Shown here: positions 27,806-29,723 of the stretch, in pieces
Numbering within the stretch: position 1 is the stretch's first letter
How the letters are laid out: the number at the start of each line of letters is the position of its first letter
Origin: Coriobacteriia bacterium
GTDB taxonomy: Bacteria > Actinomycetota > Coriobacteriia > WRKU01 > WQUG01
Assembly: GCA_009785795.1 (NCBI GenBank)
Contig: WQVN01000001.1
Location: 25,487-89,486, forward strand
Reading direction: 5' to 3'
DNA length: 64,000 bases
Translations under genes and position numbers: made by a program
Notes under the pieces: model-generated
Seen by the model: only the letters and a program-made list of their open reading frames with translations
What the model was told of the DNA's origin: nothing
The model's database searches: none

Positions 27806-27900
27806 CGGAGGATTGCCCGAGCTGGCTGAAGGGGCACGACTGGAAATCGTGTGTGCCGTTTGAAGCGGTACCTAGGGTTCGAATCCCTAATCCTCCGCCA
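27806..27900 (+). tRNA. tRNA-Ser (anticodon GGA).
   Basis: GGAGGATTGCCCGAGCTGG...CACGA-CTGGAAA-TCGTG...GGGTTCGAATCCCTAATCCTCCGCCA. It has a long variable arm. Confidence 0.8.
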
Positions 27901-27939
27901 GATTACCCCAGTGAGCACGAAGTGTTTGCTGGGGTAATC
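27901..27939 (+). terminator. Hairpin immediately 3' of tRNA-Ser(GGA).
   Basis: GATTACCCCAG-N17-CTGGGGTAATC is an 11-bp stem. Confidence 0.5.
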
Positions 27940-27952
27940 TGATGATGGAATA

Positions 27953-28013
27953 GAGGGATTCGAATAGAGTACATTGCGCAGCAATGTGCGGGAATCCCCG
28001 TTTCCTCCGCCAT
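27953..28013 (+). other. Degenerate tRNA-Ser 3'-half fragment, interrupted by a palindrome.
   Basis: gagGGATTCGAAT-[acattgcgcagcaatgt]-GGGAATCCCCgtTTCCTCCGCCA mirrors the tRNA's AGGGTTCGAATCCCTAATCCTCCGCCA 3' end. It looks like an att-like remnant. Confidence 0.55.
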
Positions 28014-28016
28014 TTC

Positions 28017-28436
28017 CTAAAATAGTTCGCCTTTGCTCTGAGGAGGCTTCATCGAGCAACTGACCTGGATTCCCTCTCTTTGCATGTAGTCACTGCCAAA
28101 GTGATACATAGCTGCCAGTGTAGGTTCGATTTCTTTGCCAAGGTCAGATAGAGAGTATTCTACTTTTGGTGGAACAACAGGATACACAGTTCGTATTACC
28201 AAGTTATCCTTTTCTAGTTCTCGCAATTGCTGTGTCAGCATTTTAGGAGTTGCTTGAGGAACCAGCTTACTTAACTCTCCAAAGCGCAAAACTCCATCGA
28301 GCAGATGCCACACAATTAACGGCTTGTATTTCCCGCCGATCATGCCAAGTGTTGTAGCAACAGGGCAGTTACCTTTTATGCAATCTTTATTCAATGGATT
28401 ACTCCTTACAGTATCTTTTTGGATAGTATAGCACAA
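28017..28436 (-). CDS. HxlR-family winged-helix transcriptional regulator.
   Basis: CPVATTLGMIGGKYKPLIVWHL is a typical HxlR N-terminus. Confidence 0.8.
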   Translation of the reverse strand: MCYTIQKDTVRSNPLNKDCIKGNCPVATTLGMIGGKYKPLIVWHLLDGVLRFGELSKLVPQATPKMLTQQLRELEKDNLVIRTVYPVVPPKVEYSLSDLGKEIEPTLAAMYHFGSDYMQREGIQVSCSMKPPQSKGELF

Positions 28437-28536
28437 TAAGGTGCGTACTTGTTTTCAAGATAGCTATTAGACATACTTAATTTAAGTACTTAGGATAAAT
28501 GATTGATTTGACTGCTTTAAAGGAGGTGATGTGCAA

Positions 28537-28638
28537 ATGTCAAAAGATAATGGTTGTTCTAATCCGCACTGCAAGTGCGTAAATTGTACCTGTGATCCCT
28601 GCCTGTGTACTCCAGATAATCCTTGTGCTTGTGAGTAG
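28537..28638 (+). CDS. Cysteine-rich 33-aa peptide (MSKDNGCSNPHCKCVNCTCDPCLCTPDNPCACE), metallothionein-like. It is not in the ORF track.
   Basis: I read it directly. An AGGAGGTGA RBS sits 7 nt upstream of the ATG at 28537. The peptide has 9 Cys and 1 His in 33 residues, with CxC and CxxC spacing. It lies between hxlR and arsC. Confidence 0.6.
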   Translation: MSKDNGCSNPHCKCVNCTCDPCLCTPDNPCACE

Positions 28639-28700
28639 CGGCAAGAAGACTTCAAAGAGGTGTCTGACGGCATCTCTTTTTCTTTTACTGCTGTGTTTGT

Positions 28701-29132
28701 CTATAGTCGGTGGACTAACTCTCGAATCTTCTTTTCAATTTCGGCAATAATTTTCAAGAAGGCATCGTTACCTTTCCCCGAAGGGTCATCTAGCTCCCAA
28801 TCTTCGCGATGCTGACAAGGCAGAGTAGGGCAGTTCACGTTACAGCCCATTGTAATCACTACATCAAGCGGTAGTATGTCCTCTATTAATTTGGGACTTT
28901 GTGTTAGCTCCATGTTAATGTCATATTGATCTTTCATGATTCGAACAGCATCTTGATTGATCTTGTCTACCATATGTGTACCTGCACTATAACTTTCAAA
29001 TATGTCTGCTGCTATATGCCTTGCAATTGCTTCTGCCATCTGACTGCGGCACGAATTGTGAATGCAAATAAAACCTACCCTTGGCTTTCTGTCCTCCATG
29101 TTTAGGTCAAGCTTGTTTGCTGAATGCATCAA
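28701..29132 (-). CDS. arsC: Arsenate reductase / low-molecular-weight protein tyrosine phosphatase family (thioredoxin-coupled ArsC type).
   Basis: It has the CIHNSCRS P-loop (CX5R) and distal Cys residues. Confidence 0.75.
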   Translation of the reverse strand: MMHSANKLDLNMEDRKPRVGFICIHNSCRSQMAEAIARHIAADIFESYSAGTHMVDKINQDAVRIMKDQYDINMELTQSPKLIEDILPLDVVITMGCNVNCPTLPCQHREDWELDDPSGKGNDAFLKIIAEIEKKIRELVHRL

Positions 29133-29273
29133 TTTGAATCCTTTTCACTTTTAGCTTCGGTATTTGAAAACAGGTATCTATACACCACATATGCCAGAAG
29201 TGCACCTATTACCTGCATAGCAATAAAGACTAGTCCATCATCGATAGGCCAATTTGAACCTAATGTGGCTTTG

Positions 29274-29723
29274 ATGACCATTGGCATCATCATGATACTT
29301 CTAAGCGTCGTGCTCTTTATTGCAATTTTTGCTCTCTATGGACGGATTTTGTATAACCTTGTGCAATGTTTTGGCAAAGGACTTGGCTTTACCTTGGGAC
29401 TTCTCTTTTTAGGGCCTATCTTTTGGCTAATTCTTGGCTTAGATGATTCACAGTATCGTCCTCGGTCAGAGCCAATGTATCCTCCTTACGGAACTGCAAC
29501 AATGTCAGGGATACAGGGTCCTGGCCCATACGGACAAGTTGTGGATCCACATGTTCAACAAGAGATGCCAGTCACTGGTGCATTTCCGCAGCAGTCACAA
29601 CAGGCTATGCCAGAAAATTCTGGCAGGCTTTCACCGGGAGCAGTTGTTGGATATACCTTGCTGATTATAGTTCCGCTTATACTTTGCTGTATGGCAATGG
29701 AGTTTTTTGCACTAACAATATAG
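29274..29723 (+). CDS. Hypothetical membrane protein with a Pro/Gln-rich central region.
   Basis: It is the 3' part of the track ORF at 29124. TM helices flank a PPYG.. Pro-rich segment. The start is uncertain. Confidence 0.4.
   Translation: MTIGIIMILLSVVLFIAIFALYGRILYNLVQCFGKGLGFTLGLLFLGPIFWLILGLDDSQYRPRSEPMYPPYGTATMSGIQGPGPYGQVVDPHVQQEMPVTGAFPQQSQQAMPENSGRLSPGAVVGYTLLIIVPLILCCMAMEFFALTI

Follow-up and report, generated by a model that had tools for sequence, protein, structure and literature searches.

A nine-cysteine mini-protein encoded opposite an HxlR-family regulator: a putative metallothionein-like family of termite-gut Clostridia, Verrucomicrobiota, and marine phages

A short cysteine-rich gene under purifying selection

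The stretch of DNA analyzed here, 64,000 nucleotides (nt) from a Coriobacteriia bacterium (GenBank assembly GCA_009785795.1, contig WQVN01000001.1, positions 25,487 to 89,486; hereafter, the window), carries on its plus strand a gene for a cysteine-rich peptide of 33 amino acids (aa), MSKDNGCSNPHCKCVNCTCDPCLCTPDNPCACE. The coding sequence spans positions 28537–28638, from an ATG at 28537 to a TAG stop codon at 28636–28638, and is preceded by a Shine–Dalgarno sequence, AGGAGGTGA (28521–28529), located 7 nt 5′ of the ATG. An in-frame GTG at 28531 lies only 1 nt past the Shine–Dalgarno sequence and is therefore implausible as a start. An original prediction, made from the letters of the window, had called this open reading frame (ORF) with its strong ribosome-binding site and had counted nine cysteines and one histidine in 33 residues; the sequence and the ORF list bear out both statements. 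Cysteine makes up 27% of the peptide, phenylalanine, tyrosine, and tryptophan are absent, and the cysteines are spaced C-x4-C-x-C-x2-C-x-C-x2-C-x-C-x5-C-x-C. On the minus strand, a gene for an HxlR-family winged-helix regulator (125 aa; 28017–28394) diverges from the peptide gene, and a gene of the low-molecular-weight protein tyrosine phosphatase (LMW-PTP)/ArsC-like type (28701–29132) converges on it. A hairpin of 11 pairs with a run of T, resembling an intrinsic terminator (plus strand, 28654–28689), lies 16 nt past the peptide stop codon, and equivalent GAGGTGG...CCACCTC hairpins occur 3′ of the peptide gene in three of the diverged loci described below (L110, L135, and L064).

Short ORFs rich in cysteine do arise by chance. 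When the whole window was shuffled 200 times with dinucleotide frequencies preserved, ORFs of ≤40 aa with ≥9 cysteines appeared three times, i.e., ~0.015 per window, so that composition alone is no more than suggestive (moderately unusual), and it is conservation that lifts the ORF above chance. A metagenome contig 98.5% identical to the window (L001) has an identical peptide ORF, and a locus of 97% identity (L139) encodes a peptide with two amino-acid changes (V15A and A31G) and two synonymous ones. Further orthologs were found in L050 and in five diverged loci (L107, L045, L110, L135, and L064) that share 68–72% DNA identity with the window and retain an ORF of 33–35 codons with nine cysteines; a GGAGG motif is kept 7–10 nt before the ATG in nine of nine diverged loci. 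Since these five loci had been retrieved with a DNA pattern derived from the peptide, the test was redone from homologs of the HxlR regulator, free of that bias. The contigs of the three nearest homologs (P0002, P0004, and P0007; 72–73% identity) each carry a peptide ORF divergent from hxlR, encoding MSETRICTNPHCKCTNCTCAPCLCTPENQCDCA, MSETKTCTNPLCTCKNCTCDPCTCTPENPCGCDEE, and MSETRVCTNPLCECPDCTCDPCTCTPENPCCGA, respectively. The orthologs obtained by this route are located in L002/3, L245, and L246/7, and the source annotations have no gene call for the peptide at L002 3772–3873, L245 2252–2359, or L246 2257–2358. Annotation is inconsistent across the family, the gene being called in other loci (e.g., L011 and L012).

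The substitutions between orthologs follow the reading frame. By the Nei–Gojobori method, the proportion of synonymous differences (pS) is 0.5–1.0, near saturation, as opposed to 0.1–0.24 for non-synonymous differences (pN), and the rate ratio dN/dS is ~0.05–0.23 where computable; pairs involving L064 were mis-registered in the table of these values and were disregarded. For instance, L107 and L045 differ by 11 synonymous and no non-synonymous changes. The pattern of substitution indicates that the ORF at 28537–28638 is a genuine gene on which purifying selection acts. The original prediction had made its case depend on conservation of the ORF and of its cysteines in orthologous loci, and both are conserved. 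The contrary view, that the ORF is fortuitous, or that the conserved element is a non-coding RNA or DNA feature with an incidental frame, can draw on the shuffles above and on the gene callers that overlooked the peptide in L002 and L245–L247. It is hardly credible: substitutions track codons, with amino acids retained where synonymous sites are saturated, the Shine–Dalgarno sequence and start codon are conserved, hundreds of members are spread over three unrelated groups, and an Rfam scan returned no RNA match at the peptide locus. The balance of synonymous and non-synonymous changes effectively refutes it already. The peptide is another real gene lost under ORF-size cut-offs.

The HxlR regulator and metal-related neighbors

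The divergent regulator belongs to PF01638 (E = 2e-30; 104.9 bits for the HxlR domain vs. a cut-off of 20.8), and its likely start is a TTG at 28394 behind AAGGAG, a gene call identical to that in the 99% identical P0001. The two divergent genes are separated by 142 nt. The HxlR protein has 6525 homologs, and an alignment of 10 orthologs contains three invariant cysteines: Cys5, Cys10 (in a CPV context), and Cys113. At every Firmicute-type locus of the window’s subfamily with enough flanking DNA, hxlR is divergent from the peptide gene. The peptide is present in four of six sampled clusters of HxlR orthologs, and a copper P1B-ATPase holds the equivalent position in the other two. Beside the hxlR start lies a block of 42 nt, AGTATCTTTTTGGATAGTATAGCACAATAAGGTGCGTACTTG (28410–28451), that is nearly unchanged across 10 loci, copA-type loci included, although the coding DNA is only ~70% identical; it is predicted to be, and probably is, the hxlR promoter together with an HxlR operator. 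Judged from this conservation, the stable partner of the peptide is the divergent HxlR regulator, and hxlR and the peptide gene are a co-inherited unit; the original prediction had grouped the two in one module.

The loci in which copA takes the place of the peptide come from Lacrimispora saccharolytica (L243; CP070235.1) and Clostridium sp. Marseille-P2415 (L249; LT732526.1). Their HxlR orthologs are 70% identical and keep both the three cysteines and the upstream block. The peptide is missing from both loci, and what diverges from hxlR instead is a gene for a copper P1B-ATPase with two heavy-metal-associated (HMA) domains (TIGR01511, 552 bits; cut-off, 397), with FtrD-like and HMA-DsbD genes close by. 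These two loci suggest copper export regulated by a protein of the HxlR type, for which no description was found in the literature. The regulator of the window resembles the HxlR (DUF24) proteins YodB, HypR, and CatR in its PF01638 domain, its orientation away from a likely target, and its N-terminal CPV and C-terminal cysteines. Unlike them, it has a third invariant cysteine (C5), and the putative targets are a cysteine-rich mini-protein or a copper ATPase, not reductases or dioxygenases.

A second type of regulator accompanies the peptide elsewhere. In three paralogous loci, L006, L011, and L098, an ArsR/SmtB metalloregulator with an ELCACD motif and a cysteine-rich tail, scoring above the NF033788 cut-off, sits directly upstream of the peptide, overlapping it or even in the same frame, a layout that is, by analogy, that of smtB–smtA. 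In L098 (1840–2337, minus strand), regulator and peptide share an uninterrupted open frame of 165 codons, which is either a natural fusion or a case of an internal start. In the window, an HxlR regulator adjoins the peptide gene and no ArsR/SmtB neighbor does. The three loci with an ArsR/SmtB regulator directly upstream, and the two in which copA replaces the peptide, tie the family independently to metal regulation; from gene arrangement, the peptide gene is coupled genetically to two families of cysteine-based regulators (i.e., HxlR and ArsR/SmtB).

Other neighbors bear on whether the peptide could be the precursor of a ribosomally synthesized and post-translationally modified peptide (RiPP), with a thioether, lanthionine-type, or S-methylated product. 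The original prediction had offered this alternative while seeing no modifying enzyme nearby, and none was found in the window: within 8 kb on either side of the peptide gene, there is no modifying enzyme (radical S-adenosylmethionine (SAM) proteins included), transporter, or protease. A core rich in cysteine and threonine would suit a RiPP, as would the class I SAM methyltransferase encoded after the peptide gene in L107, L045, L135, and L064, yet that enzyme is missing from five of nine HxlR-type loci. Likewise, a SCIFF-type radical SAM maturase lies ≤2 kb away in L011, L012, and L098, but these radical SAM genes have a SCIFF precursor of their own, are convergent, and come from related genomes, and so count as one observation. 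SCIFF (‘six cysteines in forty-five residues’) precursors are themselves short cysteine-rich peptides of Clostridia, and a SCIFF pair is found near three family members; the peptide differs from them in its motif, in having no radical SAM partner in the window, and in belonging to a family that extends to phages and Verrucomicrobiota. It matches neither the SCIFF model nor other precursor models, and it has no leader–core architecture, conservation starting from residue 2 in many marine members. As the window has no modifying enzyme and the other loci have none that recurs consistently, a RiPP precursor is very unlikely.

The methyltransferase (~203 aa) is encoded at L107 652–1263, L045 3219–3926, L135 3–374, and L064 2479–3093; its best matches, all sub-threshold, are UbiE/MenG, the DVU_1556 family, CpaM, and ArsM, and in L064, a gene of the metallo-β-lactamase fold sits between it and the peptide. 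The SCIFF precursor and maturase occupy L011 4691–6336, L012 1889–3737, and L098 451–1824, on related Oscillospiraceae-like contigs, convergent to the ArsR-type peptide loci.

Distribution of the family and its viral members

Searches for homologs, a check proposed along with the original prediction, recovered hundreds of members of a family that has no name. A phmmer search of 1.84 billion representatives matched 17 short peptides, and a profile headed by a 41-aa family member, run against 5.8 billion clusters, returned 249 of them at E ≤ 0.001, none with a Pfam domain or a name beyond ‘hypothetical protein’. A degenerate DNA pattern for N-C-T-C-D-P-C-x-C-T matched in seven places among 185,579 species genomes: four metagenome-assembled genomes (MAGs) of Verrucomicrobiota, one Oscillospiraceae MAG, one Defluviitaleaceae MAG (termite-gut projects), and one unrelated large cysteine-rich protein. 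The same pattern was found in at least 120 metagenome loci and in 102 IMG/VR viral contigs among 2.9 million, and these metagenome and viral matches together comprise 147 distinct peptides of ≤80 aa. Family members are between 21 and 60 aa long. On the evidence of these matches, the family is present in termite-gut Clostridia, Verrucomicrobiota, and many marine phages, and it occurs much more often in viral contigs than in cellular genomes.

No family model covers the peptide in Pfam or NCBIfam (no match at E ≤ 1) or in PHROGs, and look-ups of the exact sequences of the peptide, the HxlR protein, and ArsC gave no match. A tblastn search of deposited phages and plasmids was likewise negative, possibly owing to the low-complexity filter. 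Full-text literature searches for motif strings found nothing relevant, and no description of the peptide family was found in the literature on phage metallothioneins, new bacterial metallothioneins, or HxlR and metals.

In the family alignment (A1, 37 rows), all nine cysteines (C7, C12, C14, C17, C19, C22, C24, C30, and C32) are invariant, and so are N9, D20, and P21; the strongly conserved non-cysteine positions are N9, N16, T18, D20, P21, and T25. The histidine at position 11 is not conserved (H/E/D/L/Y/Q/K/N). Because positions 16–25 are set by the search pattern, only the outer cysteines and N9 count as independent evidence, and members obtained with phmmer or through HxlR confirm these, with rare exceptions. 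Some marine variants lack C14 or have the first cysteine pair shifted; one marine variant reads MCNNPECKCSNCTCDPCECSSENPCGCEFDDEQVAPV. Two larger proteins, P0121 (1448 aa) and P0123 (213 aa), contain 21 and 6 tandem units of the CxCDPCxCDPCLC type, respectively, and could represent multi-domain forms related to the motif; the C-terminus of P0123 is a hydrophobic anchor.

Conserved residues other than cysteine are unusual for metallothioneins and, together with the viral bias in the counts above and with neighbors that differ between lineages, could speak for a small zinc-structured protein that binds another macromolecule, acting, e.g., as a regulator, as an inhibitor of an enzyme, or in the takeover of a host by a phage; the cysteines would then have a structural role only. 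The stretch from N16 to T25 is fixed by the pattern, nine cysteines in 26 residues are denser than in any simple zinc ribbon or knuckle, and no fold is predicted. Moreover, the ArsR/SmtB contexts and the HxlR genes facing copA suggest that the peptide gene is itself the output of a stress response. We judge a zinc-structured binding protein to be unlikely.

Marine and viral members have their own recurrent neighbors, most often HSP20 (37 loci), peptidase M15 (33 loci), SNase (32 loci), and DUF6267 (26 loci). Iron–sulfur (Fe–S) assembly genes also recur: IscU/NifU_N in 20 loci and IscA-like genes in 12 + 8, and an IscU motif was detected in 41 of 216 loci. The commonest variant, P0200 (351 contigs), is encoded 46 nt downstream of IscA–IscA–IscU, with ThyX, ribonucleotide reductase, glutaredoxin, and ribosomal protein S21 as same-strand neighbors. 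By its gene content, the marine neighborhood is a phage auxiliary-gene neighborhood. Marine peptide loci include L251–L254 (6001–6114) and many of L020–L241. The peptide was looked for in Phage C48C1, the deposited phage that matches the marine IscU, and is not there.

These neighbors give rise to a serious, if improbable, rival to metal buffering, namely that the peptide is a thiol or Fe–S helper. Either it would be a sacrificial thiol buffer that takes up electrophiles and oxidants, the classical signals of HxlR-type sensors, or it would be a small carrier or protector of Fe–S clusters while these are assembled. Beyond the recurrence of IscU and IscA and the position of P0200 near glutaredoxin and ribonucleotide reductase, this proposal is favored by the three invariant cysteines of the HxlR regulator, since YodB, HypR, and CatR are known to sense thiol-reactive compounds. 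On the other hand, the CxC-xx repeats of the peptide differ from the CxxCxxC...CP pattern of ferredoxins and cluster-binding proteins, and the contexts coupled to ArsR/SmtB or replaced by copA indicate metal ions. The helper roles are, besides, compatible with metal buffering.

Metallothionein-like features, proposed role, and the variable right flank

The peptide has the features by which metallothioneins are operationally recognized, i.e., low mass (<~10 kDa), a high cysteine content in CxC and CxxC spacing, and no aromatic residues. To our knowledge, few bacterial metallothionein families are known (SmtA/BmtA, MymT, and a handful more), and none has been described from phages. SmtA/BmtA (PF02069, ‘family 14’), with its divergent ArsR/SmtB repressor SmtB, is, like the peptide, small and cytoplasmic with nine cysteines; the core of the peptide, NCTCDPCLC, resembles KCACEPCLC in SmtA (C-x-C-x-P-C-L-C), and in L006, L011, and L098, though not in the window, the peptide is coupled to an ArsR/SmtB regulator. 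SmtA is 56 aa long and has two histidine ligands, a zinc-finger-like fold, and aromatic residues. In contrast, the only histidine of the peptide is not conserved, no Pfam model matches, and the regulator in the window is of the HxlR and not the ArsR/SmtB type. An AlphaFold2 model built from an 18-row alignment has no secondary structure and a predicted local distance difference test (pLDDT) score of 69, as expected for a metal-dependent fold, and the peptide has no hydrophobic core. A Foldseek search of the model against the PDB found no fold match.

The beta domain of vertebrate metallothionein (PDB 1m0j) is similar in having nine cysteines in ~30 residues, CxC and CxxC spacing, and no aromatics, and the peptide aligns with it over DPCECSKSGTCNCG vs. 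DPCeCTeenpCgCe. The two differ in detailed spacing, the domain is eukaryotic, and the match is not significant; convergence and composition probably account for the resemblance. MymT of Mycobacterium tuberculosis, Cup1, and Neurospora CuMT are small, cysteine-rich, copper-induced proteins of Gram-positive or fungal cells that form Cu(I)–thiolate clusters, and the regulator of MymT belongs to the CsoR family. The peptide is likewise small and cysteine-rich, with an HxlR-type regulator unlike that of MymT, and its copA-replacing position suggests a place in the copper response comparable to that of MymT and the Cu-thioneins; at the sequence level, the comparison with these covers the searches of Pfam, NCBIfam, and the PDB, which were negative. 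In summary, by every criterion readable from sequence and context the family is metallothionein-like, yet it is no demonstrable member of a described family. The description in the original prediction stands for composition and cysteine spacing and does not extend to homology or fold, nor to the histidine. Neither the sequence searches nor the fold search found significant similarity to a known metallothionein family, and the peptide is a putative metallothionein.

We lean, with modest confidence, toward the view that the peptide is a metallothionein-like, 33-residue cytoplasmic mini-protein that would form a thiolate cluster with soft metal ions under the control of HxlR and buffer thiophilic metal or metalloid stress, with ArsC as a strain-specific neighbor. 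Most likely, the nine cysteines would wrap around a cluster of soft metal ions as in metallothioneins, which by analogy hold three divalent ions per nine cysteines, or four to six Cu(I) ions. The peptide gene, with its own Shine–Dalgarno sequence, promoter, and terminator, would be monocistronic. The divergent HxlR regulator would probably repress it through the conserved intergenic block; binding of, or reaction with, the stressor at the three invariant cysteines of HxlR would then release the operator block beside the hxlR promoter. We infer metal binding, the metal concerned, and repression by HxlR from these arrangements. Cu(I) is favored because orthologous regulators adjoin copA, and Zn, Cd, Hg, or As(III) are possible as well.

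Several observations weigh against metal buffering under HxlR control. Characterized HxlR-family members sense electrophiles, oxidants, or formaldehyde and are not known to sense metals. No paper describing an HxlR-family metal sensor was found among the listed full-text literature matches, and HxlR is nowhere named in the large 2024 review on how bacteria sense metals (PMC11672702). The PF02069 profile gave no match at E ≤ 1 in the Pfam and NCBIfam searches, the alignment of NCTCDPCLC with KCACEPCLC of SmtA, which has the N-terminal signature K-C-A-C-x2-C-L-C of its family, is a weak match (58% identity over 12 columns, with an hhalign probability of 31%), and the sole sequence match in the PDB, the beta domain of a fish metallothionein, has a non-significant E value of 0.5. 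Verrucomicrobial members have no metal-related or otherwise informative neighbors, and the IscU/IscA context of the marine members fits an Fe–S role equally well. The candidate promoter of the peptide gene is weakly predicted: TAGACA-17 nt-TAGGAT (plus strand, 28468–28496) has 9 of 12 matches to a sigma-70-like promoter, shuffles yield ~1 comparable site in this region, and distant loci do not conserve it base for base. Its spacer holds a perfect palindrome with arms of 7 base pairs, TACTTAA-T-TTAAGTA (28474–28488), a candidate operator confined to the window’s lineage; the palindrome is missing from the loci of 70% identity, so its role can be no more than a prediction.

A bolder form of the proposal, in which the peptides constitute an undescribed metallothionein family of prokaryotes and viruses, is tentative. 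The peptide of the window would be its founding bacterial example. In termite-gut Clostridia, the family would be the output of a new three-cysteine HxlR sensor of soft metals that would control copA in related species; in abundant marine phages, it would shield or feed Fe–S assembly beside IscU and IscA during infection. If the peptide does bind metal, hundreds of unnamed mini-proteins, unrecognized by standard models and sometimes missed by gene callers, would join metal homeostasis, an HxlR-type regulator would acquire its first metal-linked role, and abundant marine phages would have a new auxiliary function next to Fe–S assembly genes. At 33 residues, the peptide can be synthesized and tested directly.

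The right flank of the locus is variable. The convergent gene at 28701–29132 (minus strand) had been predicted to encode an LMW-PTP-type arsenate reductase; its product has the PF01451 domain (E = 2e-19, 70.6 bits) and a visible CxxNxCRS P-loop, and it falls below every NCBIfam ArsC equivalog cut-off (78, 66, and 66 bits vs. 215, 158, and 174). In L001 and L050, which are 98% identical to window positions 27843–29240, arsC is the end of a hgcA–hgcB–MIP–arsC cluster (L050 589–3120; L001 3–2087) that converges on the peptide gene, with scores above the NCBIfam equivalog cut-offs for HgcA (445 vs. 275 bits) and HgcB (123.5 vs. 99 bits). Lying next to the locus at 98% identity to the window, hgcA and hgcB add a further metal-linked context. 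In the window, a remnant of the 3′ end of the MIP (aquaporin-family) gene is left at 29133–29240 (minus strand). The blastn similarity of L001 and L050 ends at 29240, inside the MIP gene; beyond this breakpoint, hgcAB and most of MIP, intact in L001 and L050, have been lost from the window; by tblastn, hgcA was not found in the 64-kb window. The sequence that differs from the breakpoint onward corresponds to a DUF5684-like ORF at 29124–29723.

In L139, similarity to the window (97%, 28011–28734) stops at 28734, and unrelated genes replace arsC, which is also absent from all distant loci. Since arsC is clustered with hgcAB–MIP in L001 and L050, cut off in the window, and absent from L139 and the distant loci, ArsC is, as far as gene order tells, a strain-specific, variable neighbor left from a hgcAB–MIP–arsC cluster and not part of a conserved module. 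The compact module of HxlR, peptide, and ArsC envisaged at the outset is not supported. Three distinct right flanks occur within one species-level group. The association of hgcAB with arsenic-type genes has been described (PMC7438021; bioRxiv 10.1101/2022.10.17.512643); neither paper mentions HxlR, and the one of the two searched for these terms mentions neither a metallothionein nor a cysteine-rich peptide. In a less likely extension of the bolder proposal above, the peptide would handle Hg(II) or As(III) for the hgcAB–MIP–arsC cluster in strains where it abuts it.

On the other side, the locus is bordered by a tRNA-Ser(GGA) gene (plus strand, 27807–27900), given here for context. A degenerate second tRNA 3′ end (...GGGAATCCCCGTTTCCTCCGCCA) lies at 27940–28013, just before the hxlR stop codon, and may be a scar from an old integration event; no matching repeat was found elsewhere in the window. 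Integration of the locus as an island at tRNA-Ser was considered and not established, as the tRNA 3′ end has no second copy when up to three mismatches are allowed and the G+C content is only mildly lower, at 0.40 vs. 0.45–0.50.

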